From contig CALIOA010000068.1 in the NCBI GenBank assembly GCA_938045065.1, positions 77,495 to 141,494 of the forward strand: a stretch of 64,000 nucleotides of DNA, written 5' to 3'. Origin of the DNA: an uncultured Collinsella sp. (GTDB taxonomy: Bacteria; Actinomycetota; Coriobacteriia; Coriobacteriales; Coriobacteriaceae). This document shows positions 4,375 through 52,784 of this stretch, one piece after another. Under the pieces are notes generated by a model. The model was not told where the DNA came from and searched no databases. It worked only from the letters and a program-made list of their open reading frames with translations. Made by a program: the position numbers and the translations under genes. The stretch's first letter is position 1; the number at the start of each line of letters is the position of its first letter.

Positions 4375-4630
4375 ACCAGTGATCCTCCTTTATGGATCTG
4401 TGCCGCCCCGTGTCGTTCCGGGCGGCGTCGTACAGATTTGCCCAGCCTGCGTAAACCGCGCAGCCAGACATGGCGTTCTATGTTATCGCACCCGCGTCGA
4501 TGTGCCGCGAAAAAGTAGCTCTTACCCAAAGACTTGACGGAGACGAAACAATTGACGCACCGCGGCACCCGCCCGCGCTATTCACGTGCGACAATATGCC
4601 CCAATAAAACAGCACTTGGAAAGGCCCATC

Positions 4631-35775: not shown

Positions 35776-37185
35776 ATGATCGCCGACGCCGGCAAACGAT
35801 ATACTCTAGTTTCAGAAGAGACCATCCCGTCGAAAGCGAAATCTGTGAAGTCCCTCACCTCTTTTGCAAAGCGCTCAGCCCAGCTTGCCGCCGGCTTTGT
35901 CTGCGCTATCGCCCTTGCCGCTGGCGCGCCCACCGTCGCCGGCGCCCAAGTGCTCACGACCGACAATGTTTGCGGCAAAACCGCCGATGCGCGCGGCATC
36001 ACGGCCGAAAACCTGCCCGATATCGATGCGACCAATGCCCTCGTCATGGGCAAAGACGGCACCGTCTACTATGGGCGCGGCGCCGATGAGCAGGTCAAGA
36101 TTGCCTCGATCACCAAGGTCATGACCGCAATCCTAACCGTCGAGAATTGCAAGATGGACGAGAAGGTCACGGTGAGCAACGCCGCAGCCACTGTGGGTAA
36201 TTCGACCGCCGGCTTGCTCGAAGGCGACGAGCTTACCGTGGAGCAGGCACTGCGCGGCCTGATGATTCCCTCGGGCAACGACGCCGCCATCGTGCTCGCC
36301 GAATATGTGGGCAAGAAAATCGACCCTAAGACCAAAGACGCCGAGGCCACATTTGTGAAGGCCATGAACGAGCGCGCTAAGAAGCTCGGCTGCACCGGTA
36401 CGGTCTTCGAGAATCCGCACGGTCTGGATTTTGACGAGTGGGCCGGCGATATGCACTCGACAGCACATGACGTGGCACTGATGATGCAGGAGGCCATGAA
36501 AAACGACACGATCCGCGAGGTCGTAGCGAGCGAGGATTCCTGGATCGAGGTCACGGGCGCCGACGGCACCGACCATTCGCATTCCATGGACACGCATAAC
36601 TATTTGCTGGGCCAAGATGGCAACATCGGCGGCAAGACCGGCACCACCGACGACGCGGGCTATTGCTTTACGAGCGCCTACAACCGCGACGGCGACGAGA
36701 TCTACACCGTCGTTTTGAACTCCACCACCACCGACCAGCGCTTTACCGATACCGCAACCCTTGCCAATTGGTACTACGGCCACAAGGTCACGGTCGCGAT
36801 CGCCAACACGCAGGAAAAGACCGCCAACGGCAACCCGCTTATGGCACGCATTAGCCAGACAGATTGGACGGACAAGGCGATCGACGCCACGCTCGCCGAC
36901 CCCACGGCGCAAGCGACCGTGTTTTCCCTTGCCGGCGAGGTGACCGAAAAGGTTAGCTACGACGATCTTTCGGGCACGGTGCATGTGGGCGACAAGGTGG
37001 GCAGCGTTACGCTCAAGCAGGACGGCACCAAGATCGCCGTCATGGACCTGGTCGCCGACGAGGAAGGCGCAGGGCCCAATCCCATCGAGTGGCTGCTCGT
37101 GAAGCTCGACCGCCTGGGCCGCCGCATCGACAACCGCCCACTTGCGGCAGAGAGCGAGACCGTAGCCAAGGCACCCGAGGTGTAA
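35776..37185 (+). CDS. serine-type D-Ala-D-Ala carboxypeptidase (S11, PBP5/DacA-like)
   Basis: SxxK (ASITKVMT), SxN (IPSGNDAA) and KTG (GKTGTT) motifs; start trimmed to the ATG at 35776. Confidence 0.8.
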   Translation: MIADAGKRYTLVSEETIPSKAKSVKSLTSFAKRSAQLAAGFVCAIALAAGAPTVAGAQVLTTDNVCGKTADARGITAENLPDIDATNALVMGKDGTVYYGRGADEQVKIASITKVMTAILTVENCKMDEKVTVSNAAATVGNSTAGLLEGDELTVEQALRGLMIPSGNDAAIVLAEYVGKKIDPKTKDAEATFVKAMNERAKKLGCTGTVFENPHGLDFDEWAGDMHSTAHDVALMMQEAMKNDTIREVVASEDSWIEVTGADGTDHSHSMDTHNYLLGQDGNIGGKTGTTDDAGYCFTSAYNRDGDEIYTVVLNSTTTDQRFTDTATLANWYYGHKVTVAIANTQEKTANGNPLMARISQTDWTDKAIDATLADPTAQATVFSLAGEVTEKVSYDDLSGTVHVGDKVGSVTLKQDGTKIAVMDLVADEEGAGPNPIEWLLVKLDRLGRRIDNRPLAAESETVAKAPEV

Positions 37186-37211
37186 GATCGAAGAACAATA
37201 CACTCGCTGAA

Positions 37212-37242
37212 AGGAGGCGTCCAACGGGGCGCCTCCTTTTTT
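37212..37242 (+). terminator. intrinsic terminator of the carboxypeptidase gene
   Basis: AGGAGGCG..CGCCTCCT hairpin followed by TTTTTT. Confidence 0.6.
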
Positions 37243-37274
37243 GAGGATTCGAATCCCCAGCCGCCATTCTTGAT
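37243..37274 (-). repeat. terminal fragment (T-arm-like end) of the tRNA-associated repeat element
   Basis: GAGGATTCGAATCCCCAGCCGCCATTCTTGAT parallels the end of the full Ser-locus element (CTCGGGTTCGAATCCCCAGCGCCCTTTCTCGAT). Confidence 0.4.
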
Positions 37275-37317
37275 AACAAAAAAGGGCCCCAAATGGGACC
37301 CTTCTTTCAATTCATAC

Positions 37318-37465
37318 TGGCGGAGAGCTGGGGATTTCCGGGCATGCTACGCATGCCCTCCGGCTTCAAAGCCTGGCGGCTTTTCGCCCACGGGCTACAA
37401 ACGCTTTCGCGTTTGCTTAACGCCCGTGCCCTCTCGGGTTCGAATCCCCAGCGCCCTTTCTCGAT
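37318..37465 (-). repeat. tRNA-associated structured repeat element (Ser-locus copy)
   Basis: Starts with a 19-nt duplicate of the tRNA-Ser 3' end (TGGCGGAGAGCTGGGGATT on the plus strand). The core carries hairpin AAACGCTTTCGCGTTT and ends with a T-arm-like GGGTTCGAATCCCC. It is bounded by terminators at 37277-37307 and 37467-37494. Confidence 0.7.
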
Positions 37466-37466
37466 A

Positions 37467-37494
37467 ATAAAAAAGGGCCCCCGATGGGACCCTT
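37467..37494 (-). terminator. intrinsic terminator between tRNA-Ser and the repeat element
   Basis: AAGGGTCCC-ATCGG-GGGCCCTT hairpin with a T-run on the minus strand. Confidence 0.55.
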
Positions 37495-37508
37495 CTTTAA
37501 AGTTAAAC

Positions 37509-37599
37509 TGGCGGAGAGCTGGGGATTCGAACCCCAGATGCCCTTTTGGGGCATACTCGCTTAGCAGGCGAGCACCTTCGGCCTCTCGGTCAGCTCTCC
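37509..37599 (-). tRNA. tRNA-Ser (anticodon GCT), CCA encoded
   Basis: GGAGAGC acceptor, anticodon loop CTGCTAA, long variable arm and T-arm TGGGGTTCGAATCCCCA; 91 nt. Confidence 0.9.
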
Positions 37600-37691
37600 G
37601 TAACAGCCGTTCTATAGTAACCAAACAGCCAAGGATGGGCAAGAGGAAATTTTCTAATTGCCTAGCATCCTTTCCTCCTTGGAGGCTTCGC

Positions 37692-40133
37692 CTACCCCAG
37701 CGAGCGGTTGAGGGAGCCGAGCTCGTCGTTGCCCATGGTGCGCCACATTTGGAAGATGCAACCGCGTGCCAGGAAAAAGAAGCCGTTGTCGACCAGTTGC
37801 ACAGCGGCATCTGCCAGCTGATTCGTCACGGCGGACACTGGCGGCAGCTCGAGTCCAGCCTTGCGGATGGTCTCGACCGCTTCCTCGAACGTCGGAGGCT
37901 CGCTAACGCCCATCTCGTTCATAAGGCCCTGCATTTCTTCCAGCGCGCTACTGCCCGACTCCTCGCCGCGCGGCACGAGACGGTAACAAGCCAGCGCCAG
38001 GTCGAGCTGATCGCAATTCCAATAGGCAAACGCCAAGCGATAGAACAGGTAGCCGATTGCAGAACGATCGCTGGCAATACGTAGGCCGTGGCGCGCCACC
38101 TCGATAATCTCGTCAAAGCGCTCCAGACGCGCAAGCACGTTGATGAGCGCAAAGTGCGATTGCATGGACGAGCGCGCCAGATCGTAAAGATGGCGCACCT
38201 CGGGCAGCGCTCGTTCAAAGTCCTCTTGCTCGGCGTAAAAGCTGCAGATCTCGTGCTGGGCAAAGTACAGCGCATCGGGCGCACGGAGGATTCGCACAGA
38301 GCGATCTTCTTCCAACACCGGTAGCACCATGCGCACCAGCTGGTTGTCACAAAACTGCGTTTGAACCGGACCTGTCGCCAAAAGCTCGGCGACGGCGCAC
38401 TTAGCCTCCAACTCCTCGACAAGACGGGAAAAGCCTTCAAAGGCACCTGTACGGTCGACTTTTGCCTGCTCGCGCAATTCAACAACGCGGGCCACGTATG
38501 GGTCGTCGTCCTCTTCCATGACCTCCAACTCGTCAGCCGTATCGGCAAGCAGCAGATCGCGCAGCGCCGGCGGCAGTGTGCGATGGTCATCACGCGGACG
38601 AGCATGAACCTCCGCAGGCTCAATCGTCTCCGGAGCGGTTGACTCATACGCCTCAAGCACACGCTTGCACGGCATATCGTCCATGTCCATGCTCTCAAGA
38701 TCCTTGGCGACAGGCACGCAATCGGCCAGATAGGCCGCGCGCCCAAAGAAATACGTTGCGACAACGCGCTCGCCCTGCTCACTGTCGGGAGCAGCAATCT
38801 GCACATAGCAGCGCGTGATGCAGGTGCCCGCGGCAAAACACGCTGCCGCAAGCGTAAGTGCCACGCGCGCATCGTGCTCCGCGGCCCAGACCGCGCGCAT
38901 GTCCTCGTCCAGCTCGCGCCAGGCGTCATCCTGAGCGTCGTATTCACGTTGCGGCATGGCATCAACGACAGACTGCCCAAACCGAACGAGCATAATCCCC
39001 TCGGCAACGTTTGCCCGATAGGTATAGTCGAGCCGCGTGACCACGTTGAGCGCCTCAACGATTCGCGCAAAACGGGTGCGCACGTCCCACTCGCCGCCCG
39101 GCTGGCAAGCCACCGTACCCGGCTTGCCCCACGGGTTATCGCTCGAAGCCGTATCGAGCAGTCGGGGAACATCGTTGGTCGTCTTGGCGATATGCCACGC
39201 ATCAAAGAGCGCGCAGCCCTCAAGGCTCGGCGAGGATGCCGCAGGGACCAATCCGGCCCCGATGCGCTCAAGGATGCCGGAGAGGCGGTTGAGACGGCAC
39301 TCGATGGCAAGCAGCATGTCAATCTCGTCCTGGTCCAACAGGCTACGATCAAAATTGAGATAGAAAATCTTTGAGCGATCAATGCGAGCCAGGCTCATCT
39401 CGGACTTGGCAGCGATGGTGCGCAGGCGGGGCAAGTCAATTTCGCTCATAAGGGCGGCGGCATAGCGCTCGATACCGCTCGGATTCTCGGCATGGTCAAC
39501 GCGGTAGAGCAGCGTCTCGATAGCATCGGGGAGCGGTGCCGTGTTAAAGCCCAAAAACACCTCGACCGGCTCGGGCAACTTTACGAGCTTGATCTTGTCG
39601 ACAACGTTTTGCATACCCTCGTCGAGTCCGCCGGCGTCCGCCGTGTTCACAATAGCGCTTTCGGAGTTGGCAAATATCACGTAGCGCAAGAACATCGAGG
39701 CCATGAACTCACCGTAAGGAAGGGCGCGGGTCGAATTCCATGTCTCGTGGTCGGACTGCTCGCGCATGGGGCCTTCGGGAGAGCCGGCAGTTTGCGCACA
39801 CGCGCGCATTGCACCGTTGGCTTTCCTTACCATAATCTCACCAATACTGGAATCCGACTCGTCAAGGACCAGTTCCATGTCGGGATCGTTGGGCAGCGGA
39901 GCCTCGCTGACGGGGCGGTCCACCTTGTACACCTCACCCGAAACGCTTACGTAGCCCAAAAGCGACACATGACTTTTGCCAACGAACTCGACGACATAAC
40001 AAGATTCATGCTGATCCTCGCCAAAGAGTTTCCAGACCACGCCATATGAGCGTCCCGCAGGCTGCTCGGGCATCGCCGGAAAGCGCTTCTTGGGATCGAG
40101 AAACCTGAGCTTGTATGTCGGACGCTCTGCCAC
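37692..40133 (-). CDS. hypothetical protein, 813 aa, no recognisable catalytic motif; C-terminal region TPR/helical-repeat-like
   Basis: Long ORF with GC3-biased codon usage and no P-loop or other motif that I recognise; flanked by tRNA-Ser and the tRNA-Arg cluster. Confidence 0.7.
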   Translation of the reverse strand: MAERPTYKLRFLDPKKRFPAMPEQPAGRSYGVVWKLFGEDQHESCYVVEFVGKSHVSLLGYVSVSGEVYKVDRPVSEAPLPNDPDMELVLDESDSSIGEIMVRKANGAMRACAQTAGSPEGPMREQSDHETWNSTRALPYGEFMASMFLRYVIFANSESAIVNTADAGGLDEGMQNVVDKIKLVKLPEPVEVFLGFNTAPLPDAIETLLYRVDHAENPSGIERYAAALMSEIDLPRLRTIAAKSEMSLARIDRSKIFYLNFDRSLLDQDEIDMLLAIECRLNRLSGILERIGAGLVPAASSPSLEGCALFDAWHIAKTTNDVPRLLDTASSDNPWGKPGTVACQPGGEWDVRTRFARIVEALNVVTRLDYTYRANVAEGIMLVRFGQSVVDAMPQREYDAQDDAWRELDEDMRAVWAAEHDARVALTLAAACFAAGTCITRCYVQIAAPDSEQGERVVATYFFGRAAYLADCVPVAKDLESMDMDDMPCKRVLEAYESTAPETIEPAEVHARPRDDHRTLPPALRDLLLADTADELEVMEEDDDPYVARVVELREQAKVDRTGAFEGFSRLVEELEAKCAVAELLATGPVQTQFCDNQLVRMVLPVLEEDRSVRILRAPDALYFAQHEICSFYAEQEDFERALPEVRHLYDLARSSMQSHFALINVLARLERFDEIIEVARHGLRIASDRSAIGYLFYRLAFAYWNCDQLDLALACYRLVPRGEESGSSALEEMQGLMNEMGVSEPPTFEEAVETIRKAGLELPPVSAVTNQLADAAVQLVDNGFFFLARGCIFQMWRTMGNDELGSLNRSLG

Positions 40134-40236
40134 GAAATATCACCCTGATCGGTCGTCTAGAGAAGGAGCGGTCGCGGATAGGCCGCGATACCTACTCGGA
40201 ATCTTACACGAGTCGATAAGAAATCGTCCGCTTCAC

Positions 40237-40270
40237 GCCCGCGCCTCGACCGAGGTTCGAATCCATGCAG
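40237..40270 (-). repeat. terminal fragment of the tRNA-associated repeat element (Arg locus)
   Basis: GCCCGCGCCTCGACCGAGGTTCGAATCCATGCAG is identical to the end of the full Arg copies. Confidence 0.4.
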
Positions 40271-40318
40271 TGCTTACGTAAAAGAAAAGCCCCCGTTGCC
40301 GGGAGCTTTAATCTCAAA

Positions 40319-40460
40319 TGGTGCGGCGTATAGGATTCCGCGCATCCGCTGCGCGGATCCGCACCGGCTTCGCCCGCCTGCCGGCGTGCTCGCCCGCTCG
40401 CTAAAAACGCTCCGCGTTTTCTTGGCGCTCGCGCCTCGACCGAGGTTCGAATCCATGCAG
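40319..40460 (-). repeat. tRNA-associated structured repeat element (Arg-locus copy 1)
   Basis: Begins with TGGTGCGGCGTATAGGATT, a 19-nt duplicate of the tRNA-Arg 3' end. The core carries hairpins GGATTCCGCGC..GCGCGGATCC, CCGGC..GCCGG and AAAACGCTCCGCGTTTT, and it ends with GGTTCGAATCCATGCAG. Confidence 0.7.
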
Positions 40461-40469
40461 CGGCGACAT

Positions 40470-40497
40470 AAAAGAAAAGCCCCCGTTGCCGGAGGCT
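40470..40497 (-). terminator. intrinsic terminator after tRNA-Arg; the same hairpin recurs after every element copy
   Basis: AGCCTCCGGCAACGGGGGCT hairpin followed by TTTCTTTT on the minus strand. Confidence 0.6.
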
Positions 40498-40508
40498 TCA
40501 AGTTCAAT

Positions 40509-40585
40509 TGGTGCGGCGTATAGGATTCGAACCTATGACGTTCTGATTCGTAGTCAGACCCTCTATCCAGCTGAGGTAACGCCGC
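40509..40585 (-). tRNA. tRNA-Arg (anticodon ACG), CCA encoded
   Basis: GCGGCGT acceptor, anticodon loop CTACGAA and T-arm ATAGGTTCGAATCCTAT; own promoter TTGACC-17-CATAAT upstream. Confidence 0.9.
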
Positions 40586-40743
40586 AACTTGTTGATTATT
40601 ATGCACATGGACTGAATAATGGTCAAGCGTTTTTTCAAAAAAAGTTATCGAATTTGATTTTTACTCATTTGGAGGGCTTGGCACGATCTTCGGTGCATCG
40701 CGATATAAGAAAAGCCCCCGTTTCCGGAGGCTTTAAATTCAAT

Positions 40744-40888
40744 TGGTGCGGCGTATAGGATTCCGCGCATCCGCTGCGCGGATCCGCACCGGCTTCGCCC
40801 GCCTGCCGGCGGACTCGCCCGCTCGCTAAAAACGCTCCGCGTTTTCTTGACGCTCGCGCCTCGAACGAGGTTCGAATCTCCGCAATGC
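40744..40888 (-). repeat. tRNA-associated structured repeat element (Arg-locus copy 2)
   Basis: Same architecture as copy 1, with a slightly diverged right end (CGAACGAGGTTCGAATCTCCGCAATGCC). Confidence 0.7.
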
Positions 40889-40933
40889 CCCCGTAAAGGA
40901 AAAGCCCCCGTTTCCGGAGGCTAAAAACCCAAT

Positions 40934-41010
40934 TGGTGCGGCGTATAGGATTCGAACCTATGACGTTCTGATTCGTAGTCAGACCCTCTATCCAGCTGAG
41001 GTAACGCCGC
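40934..41010 (-). tRNA. tRNA-Arg (anticodon ACG), second copy
   Basis: Identical sequence to the copy at 40509-40585; own TTGACC-17-CATAAT promoter. Confidence 0.9.
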
Positions 41011-41100
41011 AACGCACGGATTATTATGCACGCGAGCCCCCGATGGGTCAAGCGACAATTTGGAAAATTTTTACGAAGCGCTGATTAAGTTGTCATGCTG

Positions 41101-41212
41101 ATCCGCACCGGCTTCGCCCGCCTGCCGGCGCGCTCGCCCGCGGGCTAAAATCGCTCCGCGCTTTCTTGACGCCCGCGCCTCGACCGAGGTTCGAATCCAT
41201 GCGGCGTCCGCC
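41101..41212 (-). repeat. tRNA-associated repeat element, 5'-truncated copy (lacks the tRNA 3'-end duplicate)
   Basis: Starts within the core at ATCCGCACCGGCTTCGCCCGCC; the rest is identical to the following full copy. Confidence 0.6.
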
Positions 41213-41252
41213 TAAAAGAAAAGCCCCCGTTGCCGGAGGCTTTAAGTTCGAT

Positions 41253-41402
41253 TGGTGCGGCGTATAGGATTCCGCGCATCCGCTTCGCGGATCCGCACCG
41301 GCTTCGCCCGCCTGCCGGCGCGCTCGCCCGCGGGCTAAAATCGCTCCGCGCTTTCTTGACGCCCGCGCCTCGACCGAGGTTCGAATCCATGCGGCGTCCG
41401 CC
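41253..41402 (-). repeat. tRNA-associated structured repeat element (Arg-locus copy 4)
   Basis: Full copy, bounded by terminators at 41213-41250 and 41403-41440. Confidence 0.7.
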
Positions 41403-41442
41403 TAAAAGAAAAGCCCCCGTTGCCGGAGGCTTTAAGTTCGAT

Positions 41443-41519
41443 TGGTGCGGCGTATAGGATTCGAACCTATGACGTTCTGATTCGTAGTCAGACCCTCTAT
41501 CCAGCTGAGGTAACGCCGC
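41443..41519 (-). tRNA. tRNA-Arg (anticodon ACG), third copy
   Basis: Identical sequence to the other two Arg copies. Confidence 0.9.
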
Positions 41520-41599
41520 AGCGCAAGACATATAAAACCACTTTAGTTCGTTAGAGTCAAGCAAAATCTCAAACTTTTTTTCGCGCGAGCCACAATTTG

Positions 41600-41980
41600 T
41601 TACGCTGTGCCACGAGCATCAGCGCTTTTCGTGCGATCGATTGGCTTTTCGATCACATCGAACCCGGCGCCAAGCTCCCCCAGAAGCGACCGCACCCGTT
41701 GGGCGCAGTCGTAGTCGGCAAACGAGATGCTCAGCATTCGGGCCACCTGATTAGAAGTTCCAACGCCATAGAAGTGCTCAAGGACAACAAGCCCCTCATG
41801 CGCAACAAACGTCTCGACCACATGCGGCGACTCCTCATAGCACCATTGCGTCAATGGTCCCTCACTCGTCTGCCGAACCACCAAGCCACCCATACCCGAC
41901 GGCTCGCACGTTACCAGCAGGTGCTCCCCGCCCTCATCGCTCTGGAACAAAACAACCCGCTCGTCGAACAGCTCCATCAC
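41600..41980 (-). CDS. hypothetical protein (126 aa)
   Basis: ORF with a GC3-biased codon pattern; no family recognised. Confidence 0.5.
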   Translation of the reverse strand: MMELFDERVVLFQSDEGGEHLLVTCEPSGMGGLVVRQTSEGPLTQWCYEESPHVVETFVAHEGLVVLEHFYGVGTSNQVARMLSISFADYDCAQRVRSLLGELGAGFDVIEKPIDRTKSADARGTA

Positions 41981-46249: not shown

Positions 46250-46399
46250 ATGGTGCGGGCGAAAGGACGTCCGCGTATCCGCTTCGCGGATCCGCACCGG
46301 CTTCGGCCGCCTGCCGGCGTCCTCGCCAGCTCGCTAAAAACGCTCCGCGTTTTCTTTACGCTCGCTCCTTCACAGGTTCAAGTCCCTGCGATGGGCCCA
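46250..46399 (-). repeat. tRNA-associated structured repeat element (Leu-locus copy)
   Basis: Begins with TGGTGCGGGCGAAAGGAC, an 18-nt duplicate of the tRNA-Leu 3' end. The core is ~90% identical to the Arg copies (ATCCGCTTCGCGGATCCGCACCGGCTTCG..GCTCGCTAAAAACGCTCCGCGTTTTCTT). It ends with CAGGTTCAAGTCCCTG, a T-arm matching the tRNA-Leu T-loop. Confidence 0.7.
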
Positions 46400-46438: not shown

Positions 46439-46525
46439 ATGGTGCGGGCGAAAGGACTTGAACCTTCATGGGGTTGCCCCCATACGGACCTGAACCGTAC
46501 GCGTCTGCCAATTCCGCCACGCCCG
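46439..46525 (-). tRNA. tRNA-Leu (anticodon CAG), CCA encoded
   Basis: GCGGGCG acceptor, anticodon loop TTCAGGT, long variable arm and T-arm AAGGTTCAAGTCCTT; 87 nt. Confidence 0.9.
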
Positions 46526-46569
46526 CGTGCAGGAATTAGAATAACGGAGCGCCACCACGAACGCAAGAA

Positions 46570-52523: not shown

Positions 52524-52668
52524 GGTGGCGGGGAAGGAAATCGCGCCCGCGCTCCGCGCGTGCGGACCGCTGCGGCGCTTGCGCGCCTTGCGAGCTCCGC
52601 TGGCAAACGCTCACGCGTTTACTCAGCTCCGCGCCCTCACGGGGTTCGATTCCATGTGGGGGCTGCAT
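52524..52668 (-). repeat. tRNA-associated structured repeat element (Phe-locus copy; more diverged core)
   Basis: Begins with GGTGGCGGGGAAGG, a duplicate of the tRNA-Phe 3' end. The core keeps hairpin AAACGCTCACGCGTTT, and the end carries GGGGTTCGATTCC, matching the tRNA-Phe T-loop. Bounded by identical terminators at 52483-52511 and 52669-52697. Confidence 0.65.

Positions 52669-52709: not shown

Positions 52710-52784
<75 letters not shown>

Follow-up and report, generated by a model that had tools for sequence, protein, structure and literature searches.

The element behind tRNA-Ser(GCT)

We analyzed a stretch of 64,000 nucleotides (nt) from an uncultured Collinsella sp. (contig CALIOA010000068.1 of assembly GCA_938045065.1, positions 77,495 to 141,494; hereafter "the window"), with the focus on a short, apparently non-coding element that follows the gene for the serine transfer RNA (tRNA) with anticodon GCT. 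All features of this locus lie on the minus strand, and their coordinates and sequences agree with a direct reading of the DNA. In tRNA sense, the tRNA-Ser(GCT) gene is followed by a trailer with terminator, the element, a second trailer with terminator, and a stub. Beyond the stub lies a convergent gene encoding a D-Ala-D-Ala carboxypeptidase, whose terminator ends the region.

The tRNA gene (37509-37599) encodes its own CCA and was called by ARAGORN and, at 50.7 bits, by the Rfam tRNA model. The first repeat arm, R1 (37454-37508), consists of an AU-rich trailer, the intrinsic terminator GGGUCCC-AUCG-GGGGCCC with its U6 run, and a spacer. It folds at -21.3 kcal/mol (z = -3.1), and the G·U pair of its terminator is viable on the minus, tRNA-sense strand only. 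The element itself is present in one full copy of about 135 nt (37318-37452; nhmmer E = 1.2e-26), with a minimum free energy (MFE) of -76.4 kcal/mol (z = -7.1). In the MFE fold, a terminal helix of 10 bp, named P1, closes a junction of four hairpins and leaves the 3' CUCUCCGCCA unpaired. Next comes the second repeat arm, R2 (37267-37317; -21.9 kcal/mol, z = -4.1), a diverged copy of trailer and terminator with about 80% similarity to R1, and then a 22-nt stub of the next unit (37245-37266) with the sequence TGGCGGCTGGGGATTCGAATCC, that is, TGGCGG plus CTGGGGATTCGAATCC, of which only the antisense T arm is represented.

Within the element, the first 17 nt, GCTGGGGATTCGAACCC (37436-37452), are the reverse complement of the tRNA-Ser T arm, an assignment that is borne out by its tracking of the tRNA in 11 tRNA types and by pairing counts. 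The 5' part of this segment pairs with the tail of the element to form P1, and its CCC opens hairpin P2 (37429-37438; CCC-GAGA-GGG), which carries a GNRA-type tetraloop, exists in several variants and is paired in 100% of the cells examined. Hairpin P3 (37399-37414; AAACGC-GAAA-GCGUUU) is the conserved core motif, its outer pair being seen as C:G, G·U, A:U and U·G. The fold further places a hairpin, GGGCAUGC-GUA-GCAUGCCC, in the 3' part of the core (37340-37358). The tail (37318-37336) is, by its per-position identity profile, an exact 19-nt copy of tRNA-Ser positions 58-76 including CCA; this 19-mer, AATCCCCAGCTCTCCGCCA, occurs twice in the window, at the tRNA 3' end (37509) and at 37318-37336.

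Much of this anatomy had been read from the letters alone in a preliminary description of the locus. The 19-nt identity with the tRNA-Ser 3' end proves exact and recurs in the window only at the tRNA itself; the other end is indeed the reverse complement of the T arm, with the proposed 10-bp terminal helix present in the MFE fold; and the conserved AAACGC/GCGTTT hairpin sits at 37399-37414, with a GAAA loop in tRNA sense. The layout of terminator, element and terminator also holds, but the element measures 134-136 nt instead of 148 nt, the extra bases belonging to the poorly conserved spacer. Similarly, the fragment beyond the next terminator exists, with a size of 22 nt (37245-37266) rather than about 32 nt. 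Finally, what had been termed a "T-arm mimic" does derive from the T arm but is better worded as an antisense copy of it.

A family of tRNA-linked repeats in Collinsella

All six tRNAs of the window (Ser, three Arg-ACG, Leu-CAG and Phe-GAA, all on the minus strand) carry the element, and at each of the six loci the end of the tRNA is found a second time 186-191 nt further on. A search pattern for the core motif matched the window five times, compared with 0.00 matches expected from 100 shuffles of the window, so the recurrence is not due to chance. Applied to a collection of species-representative genomes, the same pattern yielded at least 120 loci among the matches listed, almost all on Collinsella contigs; locus counts below refer to 120 Collinsella loci plus the window. 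In these loci there are 145 core-motif matches, 139 of which have a tRNA gene upstream on the same strand. In 135 of these 139 the core lies 58-68 nt behind the tRNA, and in the other four it lies one unit further. A profile search recovered 160 copies, and the seven without a tRNA stand at locus edges or behind an integrated element that splits the tRNA.

At least 11 tRNA types are served in this way: Val-TAC, Leu-CAG, Arg-ACG, Lys-TTT, Gln-TTG, Phe-GAA, Ser-GCT, Glu-TTC, Gly-CCC, Gly-GCC and Leu-TAA. For each type, the tail is a 16- to 20-nt copy of the cognate tRNA 3' end, mostly exactly positions 59-76, and the 5' end holds 9-18 nt of the reverse complement of the cognate T arm. The covariation of the ends with the neighboring tRNA, which the preliminary description had put forward for a few tRNAs, is thus real and general across 11 types, and its picture of a constant core with ends that change by tRNA is strongly supported by the 120 Collinsella loci. 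A majority of core copies with ends unrelated to the nearest tRNA was looked for and not found, the orphans being located at locus edges or behind a prophage or integrative element.

The repeated unit runs from tRNA positions ~59-76 through the AU-rich trailer, the intrinsic terminator and a short spacer to the antisense T arm and a hairpin core of about 100 nt. It has a period of 186-191 nt and starts inside the T loop (position ~58/59); tRNA 59-76 also opens whatever comes next, be it a further unit or the final tail. Behind the P2 loop there is a degenerate direct copy of the 5' strand of the T stem and the start of the T loop, e.g., GGGUGCGA compared with GGGUUCGA in Gly-CCC. Judged by its sequence, the element can be described as the 3' part of a tRNA (~positions 51-76) with an insertion of about 100 nt in the T loop, preceded by an antisense T arm that would pair with both halves. 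Two core subfamilies exist, with P1, P2 and P3 common to both. The spacer is complementary to the whole tail, giving long terminal inverted repeats, in Ser and Gln units only, and it is poorly conserved within a type. One terminator hairpin, GCTCCCAGCAATGGGAGC, together with its spacer, TGGGCCCATCGCAG, is common to Val units (loci L018, L025 and L031) and Leu units (L003 and others), whose cores belong to different subfamilies; this suggests an exchange of modules between loci. Three points are new relative to the preliminary description: the tandem array that starts in the T loop, the inclusion of the terminator in the repeated unit, and the existence of a described counterpart, the RtT repeat of Escherichia coli.

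Conservation and RNA structure

To what extent the element is conserved as a sequence and as a fold can be read from the comparison of its copies. The 5' half of the core reaches a mean pairwise column identity of 0.94-0.98, equal to that of tRNA promoters, compared with 0.5-0.8 in the flanks. Mismatches between tail and tRNA amount to at most 3% at positions 59-72, 4-19% at positions 73-76, and 20-55% in the trailer that is duplicated along with them.

Covariation was assessed in an alignment of 32 sequences against 500 shuffles and slid controls. Paired cells made up 91.9% of the total, compared with 83.2% in the shuffles and 30-54% in the slid controls, and 61 cells had changed on both sides when 23 were expected; none of the 500 shuffles reached either value. 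P2 appears as CCC/GGG, CCU/AGG or CCUC/GAGG with varying GNRA-type tetraloops. P3 combines AAACGC/GCGUUU with two outer pairs, for which A:U, C:G, G·U and U·G are all found, and has GNRA tetraloops or triloops. In the 3' hairpin the sequence changes and the pairing is kept, as in GCGGAUCCGC/GCGGAUGCGC and GCGGAUUUGC/GCAAAUACGC of other types. Only the tRNA-sense strand can accommodate the G·U pairs of P1, P3 and the terminators. GNRA-type loops, covariation and strand-specific G·U pairs together argue for selection on an RNA of the sense strand, and the element is, as far as sequence comparison can tell, most likely a structured RNA made by read-through of the terminator.

The two ends are informative in their own right. 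Several antisense arms (in Leu-CAG, Leu-TAA and some Gly-CCC units) are not exact complements but differ by A-to-G changes through which a G·U pair is retained, and in one genome tRNA-Gly has A59, yet both ends of the element keep a G59:C pair. For tail positions 66-72, which correspond to the 3' strand of the acceptor stem, no covarying partner was found inside the element. The 3' hairpin of Val units is the same as that of Glu units, but the tails differ. As positions 66-72 match the tRNA without having an internal partner, a single-stranded, tRNA-specific acceptor strand appears to be preserved. No other observation hints as strongly at a joint action of the element with its own tRNA or with enzymes that read the end of that tRNA.

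Other copies in the window

The remaining copies of the window, all on the minus strand, follow the same plan. Behind the tRNA-Arg(ACG) gene at 40509-40585, the element occupies 40319-40459 and is followed by a 38-nt stub of a further unit at 40231-40268; behind the one at 40934-41010, it occupies 40744-40883; and behind the one at 41443-41519 there are 1.75 tandem units (41097-41392), of which the complete one occupies 41253-41392 and the truncated one 41097-41202. The Arg loci hold 1.2 to 1.75 units each. The element of tRNA-Leu(CAG) (46440-46526) is found at 46251-46390, and that of tRNA-Phe(GAA) (52710-52784) at 52525-52657. The tRNA-Phe gene encodes ...GCCACC followed by T, so that its CCA is incompletely encoded, and the tail of the element (52524-52541) repeats this genomic version, ...CCACC-T.

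At positions 40150-41650, three cassettes stand in tandem, each made up of promoter, tRNA-Arg(ACG), terminator, element and terminator; their tRNAs are identical, and their variants of trailer and terminator differ. A promoter-like TTGACC-17-CATAAT precedes two of the three tRNA-Arg genes; in the tRNA/element loci of the window, no promoter-like site was detected before an element, and terminators stand after each tRNA and each tail. Elsewhere in the window, an aspS RNA motif (RF02930) was matched at 4386-4469 on the minus strand with 76 bits (gathering score, 42.5).

Gain, loss and lineage limits

Three other species have "empty" tRNA-Ser loci (L043, L057 and L070), consisting of the tRNA, one repeat arm and a 16-nt antisense stub, with the same downstream flank as in the window. 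The difference from the window is exactly one unit. Moreover, distal units end at variable points between loci. Variable truncation and a whole-unit difference are what recombination between direct repeats of 75-95 nt would give.

For the comparison with other genera, synteny could be followed through aminopeptidase and cellulase neighbors, whereas the route through TatD was mostly uninformative, the tRNA-Leu region being missing there. No element was found behind tRNA-Lys in Enorma or in C. tanakaei, nor behind tRNA-Phe in a relative with 63% TatD identity; a plain terminator takes its place in each case. A relative at 80% TatD identity (L143) has only decayed stubs, namely CATGGAACCGAACCCACAAGGTGCG behind tRNA-Phe and the Leu-type stub GACTTGAACCAAAGAGGGACGAGCG in a tatD-dacB spacer that lacks tRNA-Leu (L143, 2589-2700 and 8419-8727). 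The family is lineage-restricted.

Variation also exists within Collinsella. In the C. aerofaciens replicon NZ_OY725717.1, of which 100 kb were covered, tRNA-Pro(GGG) has no element, and tRNA-Leu(TAA) is followed by a shorter variant with GCGGACGC-GCA-GCGUCCG in place of the AAACGCG hairpin (838202-838580, corresponding to 2322-2700 of L144). Since this variant lacks the AAACGCG motif, the core-motif pattern undercounts the family. The replicon, 0.9 Mb in size and listed in PLSDB as "plasmid 6", carries recA, ftsK, several ribosomal protein genes and the genes for RNase J and RNase Y, which mark it as mislabeled chromosomal DNA. It is the single PLSDB match to the element, which is therefore a match to a piece of C. 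aerofaciens chromosome and does not make the element plasmid borne.

Prophages and integrative elements at the same tRNAs

Ten matches came from IMG/VR contigs (L122-L131). In all of them, the endolysin side of a prophage ends exactly at the 3' end of tRNA-Glu, -Gln or -Lys (e.g., L130, 3300-4597; L122, 11013-12255). At the junctions, no more than the final 6-16 tRNA-like bases are left, and the trailer, terminator and element of the host come after them. Since these loci contain no tRNA, integration evidently parts the tRNA from the element by the length of the prophage. The matches are thus host flank just outside the right ends of prophages and not a phage-borne element, and INPHARED gave no match to the element.

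A few kilobases inside these prophages there are reverse transcriptase genes (PF00078; L130, 6609-8050; L129, 783-1007; L122, 8379-9953), accompanied in L129 and L130 by an RT-2 RNA (RF03077, 123-126 bits). They probably represent diversity-generating cassettes, and no link to the tRNA element was seen. At another locus (L094, 4990-5210), all that stands of tRNA-Glu before the element is its 3' part, from the variable region on, and this remnant abuts unrelated DNA. The arrangement resembles the distal junction of an integrative element whose crossover fell within the tRNA.

Identities rejected

Several simpler identities of the element were considered and rejected. It is not a tRNA or tRNA pseudogene (RF00005): neither ARAGORN nor the Rfam tRNA model makes any call beyond the six true tRNAs, the element has no 5' acceptor strand, and the same core stands behind different tRNAs. 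Neither is it an antisense tRNA, since the plus strand shows a poorly formed T arm and lacks an acceptor stem. A miniature inverted-repeat transposable element (MITE) would be suggested by the inverted ends, but every copy lies behind a tRNA and the flanking repeat consists of 75-95 nt of host tRNA end and terminator.

A small basic protein similar to the product of E. coli tpr, a gene annotated inside RtT, was also considered. The ATG is present in 52 of 139 copies, stop codons occur in Leu, Phe and Ser copies, and hairpin loops of 3 nt and of 4 nt are found in one and the same type; loop length and ATG count exclude a peptide. In the Arg-type element (40300-40462 on the minus strand; L121, 1288-1377) the ATG in CATGGATTC starts one open frame, whose product would be an arginine-rich peptide comparable to that of the annotated tpr gene. 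That this frame is not conserved in other copies casts doubt on tpr as well.

What the element may be

The best explanation overall, to which we assign a probability of roughly 0.55 as a whole, is that the tRNA-Ser locus consists of tRNA-Ser and 1.1 tandem units of a repeat that is linked to tRNA genes, occurs widely in Collinsella and encodes a structured non-coding RNA tied to its cognate tRNA. This RNA would be transcribed in tRNA orientation by read-through of the tRNA terminator and would end at the second terminator. Its tRNA-like 3' end may be trimmed by tRNA 3'-maturation enzymes, by analogy with the rtT RNA of E. coli. Pairing of the antisense T arm with the tail (P1) and with the short direct copy of the T-stem 5' strand (P2) would close the molecule and leave the 3' acceptor strand with NCCA single-stranded. 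The ends would track the tRNA because the tail originated from the tRNA 3' end and selection maintains its identity with it, with the 5' end held complementary to the tail, and the arrays would grow and shrink through recombination between the direct repeats of 75-95 nt. As to the role, it is tempting to speculate that the element presents or titrates the cognate tRNA 3' end, thereby mimicking the 3' end of an uncharged or unprocessed tRNA, but this is an analogy in which we have low confidence. Such a role would agree with the earlier idea that rtT RNA modulates how the cell responds to amino acid starvation.

Functional coupling between element and tRNA, one of the possibilities raised in the preliminary description, gains support from the conservation of the core, the sharp drop in tail identity after the tRNA end and the covariation of the helices. 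Nevertheless, a number of observations weigh against an RNA tied to its tRNA. The cellular role is proposed by analogy only. The element lies between two strong terminators and has no promoter of its own, so that its transcription depends on read-through. How one core spread to 11 tRNA loci with matched ends is not accounted for. The 3' half of the core is less conserved than the 5' half, and decaying copies exist (second Gln units and the L143 stubs). Furthermore, the covariation of P1 is partly built in if both ends are simple copies of the tRNA, and conservation in general could partly reflect gene conversion among copies, as identical terminator modules in Leu and Val units illustrate. Lastly, in the antisense arm of Leu-CAG, the T opposite A57 tracks the tRNA without having a partner inside the element, so intramolecular pairing fails to explain this base.

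The presence of one core behind 11 tRNAs within one lineage would be best explained if the element were non-autonomous mobile DNA, a miniature integrative or MITE-like element that a recombinase acting in trans inserts at the T loop or 3' end of tRNA genes, with the antisense T arm and the tail serving as recombination sites or terminal inverted repeats. We consider this unlikely, although it is the rival to which we give the most credit. It fits ends that are tailored to each tRNA, the polymorphic presence and absence of whole units, the inverted repeats of 5-11 bp at the ends, and a unit boundary in the T loop, where many integrases cross over. The terminator modules common to Leu and Val units are equally in line with it, as is the absence of the element behind tRNA-Lys in Enorma and C. 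tanakaei and behind tRNA-Phe in a distant relative, since a lineage-restricted distribution implies that the element spread to many loci within one lineage. However, no recombinase or transposase gene lies near any copy in the window, where the neighbors are housekeeping genes; copies occupy orthologous positions across species, with no recent jumps visible; and the right-hand boundaries vary, as unequal crossover and decay would lead one to expect, but not precise insertion. Selection on RNA is indicated by the GNRA-type loops and by G·U pairs that depend on the strand, and there is no match in phage records and none in plasmid records except the mislabeled chromosome fragment. The suggestion of tRNA-templated mobility, also made in the preliminary description, is not supported: neither a recombinase nor a reverse transcriptase was found in association with the element, the copy behind tRNA-Phe has the genomic CC-T instead of a mature CCA, and copies sit at orthologous sites across species. 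An origin as scars of integration, with the tRNA 3' duplicate as attL/attR and the core as a remnant of the attachment arm of a phage or an integrative and conjugative element (ICE), is very unlikely. Duplication of a tRNA 3' end is the classic mark of phage and ICE integration, it is found here, and Collinsella prophages and another integrated element do use tRNA-Glu, -Gln and -Lys. Yet the real prophage crossovers fall in the last 6-16 nt of the tRNA, the phage side does not resemble the core, and the element stays outside the prophage as host DNA; no phage match was obtained, and the same core of about 135 nt, with covarying hairpins, is present at 11 tRNAs in hundreds of species. Least probable of all is the footprint of a retroelement, in which the tail on the opposite strand would act as an 18-nt primer-binding site of a miniature element resembling those with long terminal repeats, or in which a multimeric RNA would have been reverse transcribed. 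In most types the tail is exactly positions 59-76 and hence 18 nt long, like retroviral primer-binding sites and 3' tRNA fragments, and the borders of the unit coincide with RNA processing sites. Against this stand the tRNA-Phe tail, which has the genomic CC-T and not the mature CCA, the duplication of trailer and terminator along with the tail, the preference of G·U pairs for the tRNA-sense strand, and the fact that reverse transcriptases were seen only in prophage cassettes of the diversity-generating type several kilobases away.

Two further readings were weighed. One of them, which we hold to be doubtful, takes the element for a programmable RNA with two guide-like segments, the antisense T arm and the copy of tRNA 59-76, in a constant scaffold that acts on the cognate tRNA, pre-tRNA or tRNA gene. 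The 59-76 copy is complementary to the 5' acceptor strand of the tRNA and to the template strand of the tRNA gene, and possible modes of action are an external guide or decoy for tRNA-end enzymes or toxins, a substitute 3' end for a damaged tRNA, or a guide for a recombinase. The same joint reading includes re-templating of the ends at new tRNA loci and would make E. coli RtT one member of a class that crosses phyla. The other, less probable still, is that the repeats are a neutral by-product of slippage or unequal crossover, which duplicated the tRNA 3' end with its terminator, and that the core is a passenger spacer, made uniform by gene conversion, with at most the function of a back-up terminator. 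Fractional unit numbers, variable truncation, the decay of some copies and the second terminator brought by every unit are as expected from such a process. So is the situation in E. coli, where RtT ranges freely from 1 to 10 copies per genome (copies outside the tyrT locus counted, positions not mapped). A neutral origin is difficult to reconcile, however, with a core that is conserved like tRNA promoters while its flanks drift, with compensatory changes that preserve the hairpins, and with a drop in identity exactly at the tRNA end, which conversion tracts alone would hardly produce.

Whichever reading applies, Collinsella provides a natural comparative experiment, with one scaffold, at least 11 tRNA partners and hundreds of species. 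The comparison separates the parts that are matched to the tRNA (tail 59-72 and the antisense T arm) from those that are constant. It also makes the function of RtT testable: does the free acceptor strand with CCA bind the cognate 5' strand, a processing enzyme, RelA or a toxin, and is read-through regulated? On the practical side, the elements resemble partial tRNAs, duplicated attachment sites and small RNAs (sRNAs), and the annotation of prophage boundaries, tRNAs and sRNAs in this genus, which is abundant in the human gut, will mislabel them.

Comparison with known systems

We found no description of the core sequence or of tRNA-linked repeats in Collinsella in the literature, and the element is apparently undescribed, though its design is the same as that of RtT repeats. 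In several respects it also resembles other known systems. With the attL/attR repeats of phages and ICEs it shares a tRNA 3' end that is duplicated shortly downstream of the intact gene, and the same tRNAs are real integration targets in Collinsella; it differs in the mere ~170 nt between the repeats, in encoding no integrase, in a conserved folded core that is common to 11 tRNAs, and in the antisense T arm. Like MITEs and the repetitive extragenic palindromic (REP) repeats and bacterial interspersed mosaic elements (BIME), it is short, non-coding, multicopy, intergenic and rich in hairpins and has inverted-repeat ends. Unlike them, it is tied to tRNA 3' flanks in one orientation, takes its ends from the neighboring gene, has no fixed target-site duplication, and includes in its unit a duplicated piece of a host gene together with the terminator of that gene.

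Similarities exist as well with transfer-messenger RNA, Y RNA (YrlA), the tRNA-like 3' ends of viral RNAs and synthetic external guides for RNase P, all of which place an acceptor 3' strand with NCCA beside a helix that stands in for the T stem. In contrast to those RNAs, the Collinsella element has no 5' acceptor strand, and hence no acceptor stem; a core of about 100 nt replaces the T loop, the halves of the T arm are separated by the antisense strand, and the tRNA-like part is specific to the adjacent tRNA.

The closest counterpart is RtT, which has been known since the tyrT locus was sequenced. The tyrT locus of E. coli K-12 holds four RtT copies, which score 133-138 bits with Rfam model RF00391 and are annotated as RttR, a processed sRNA. 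The RtT unit of 178 nt opens with GGGGAAGGAU, which pairs with the tail AUCCUUCCCC (P1 of Rfam), and ends in a 19-nt tRNA-Tyr 3' end. In sequence, GGGGAAGGAU is followed by AAGGUUCGA, an insert of about 75 nt, and AAUCCUUCC...CCA. A role of RtT in the response to amino acid starvation was proposed by Bösl and Kersten (1991), as repeated in PMC7542023 and in a bioRxiv preprint (10.1101/2024.07.17.603846).

At the level of sequence, no relatedness of the two families could be shown. The element matched no Rfam family at gathering score in the window or at an E value of ≤10 in 37150-41650, RtT (gathering score, 45 bits) included, and nhmmer found no homology to RtT. With a covariance model of the Collinsella element, the best-scoring sequences are the four E. 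coli RtT copies, but their 18 bits stand against 17.2 bits for an unrelated match in coding sequence and are not significant. There are also differences in organization: the Collinsella family belongs to a different host phylum and serves at least 11 isoacceptors with matched ends, whereas the four tyrT copies of K-12 follow tRNA-Tyr genes; and each Collinsella unit brings an intrinsic terminator, whereas no obvious hairpin followed by a U run is visible by eye, without a terminator scan, in the E. coli unit. In architecture, by contrast, the resemblance to RtT/RttR of tyrT-tyrV is close. Both families stand directly behind a tRNA on the same strand in tandem units that start in the T loop (178 nt and 186-191 nt); both close the unit with a copy of about 19 nt of the tRNA 3' end including CCA, with which a 5' antisense segment of T stem and acceptor pairs (P1); and both have a GC-rich core of several hairpins and a fractional, variable number of units. 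By this analogy, the Collinsella element appears to work like RtT while being a family distinct from RF00391.

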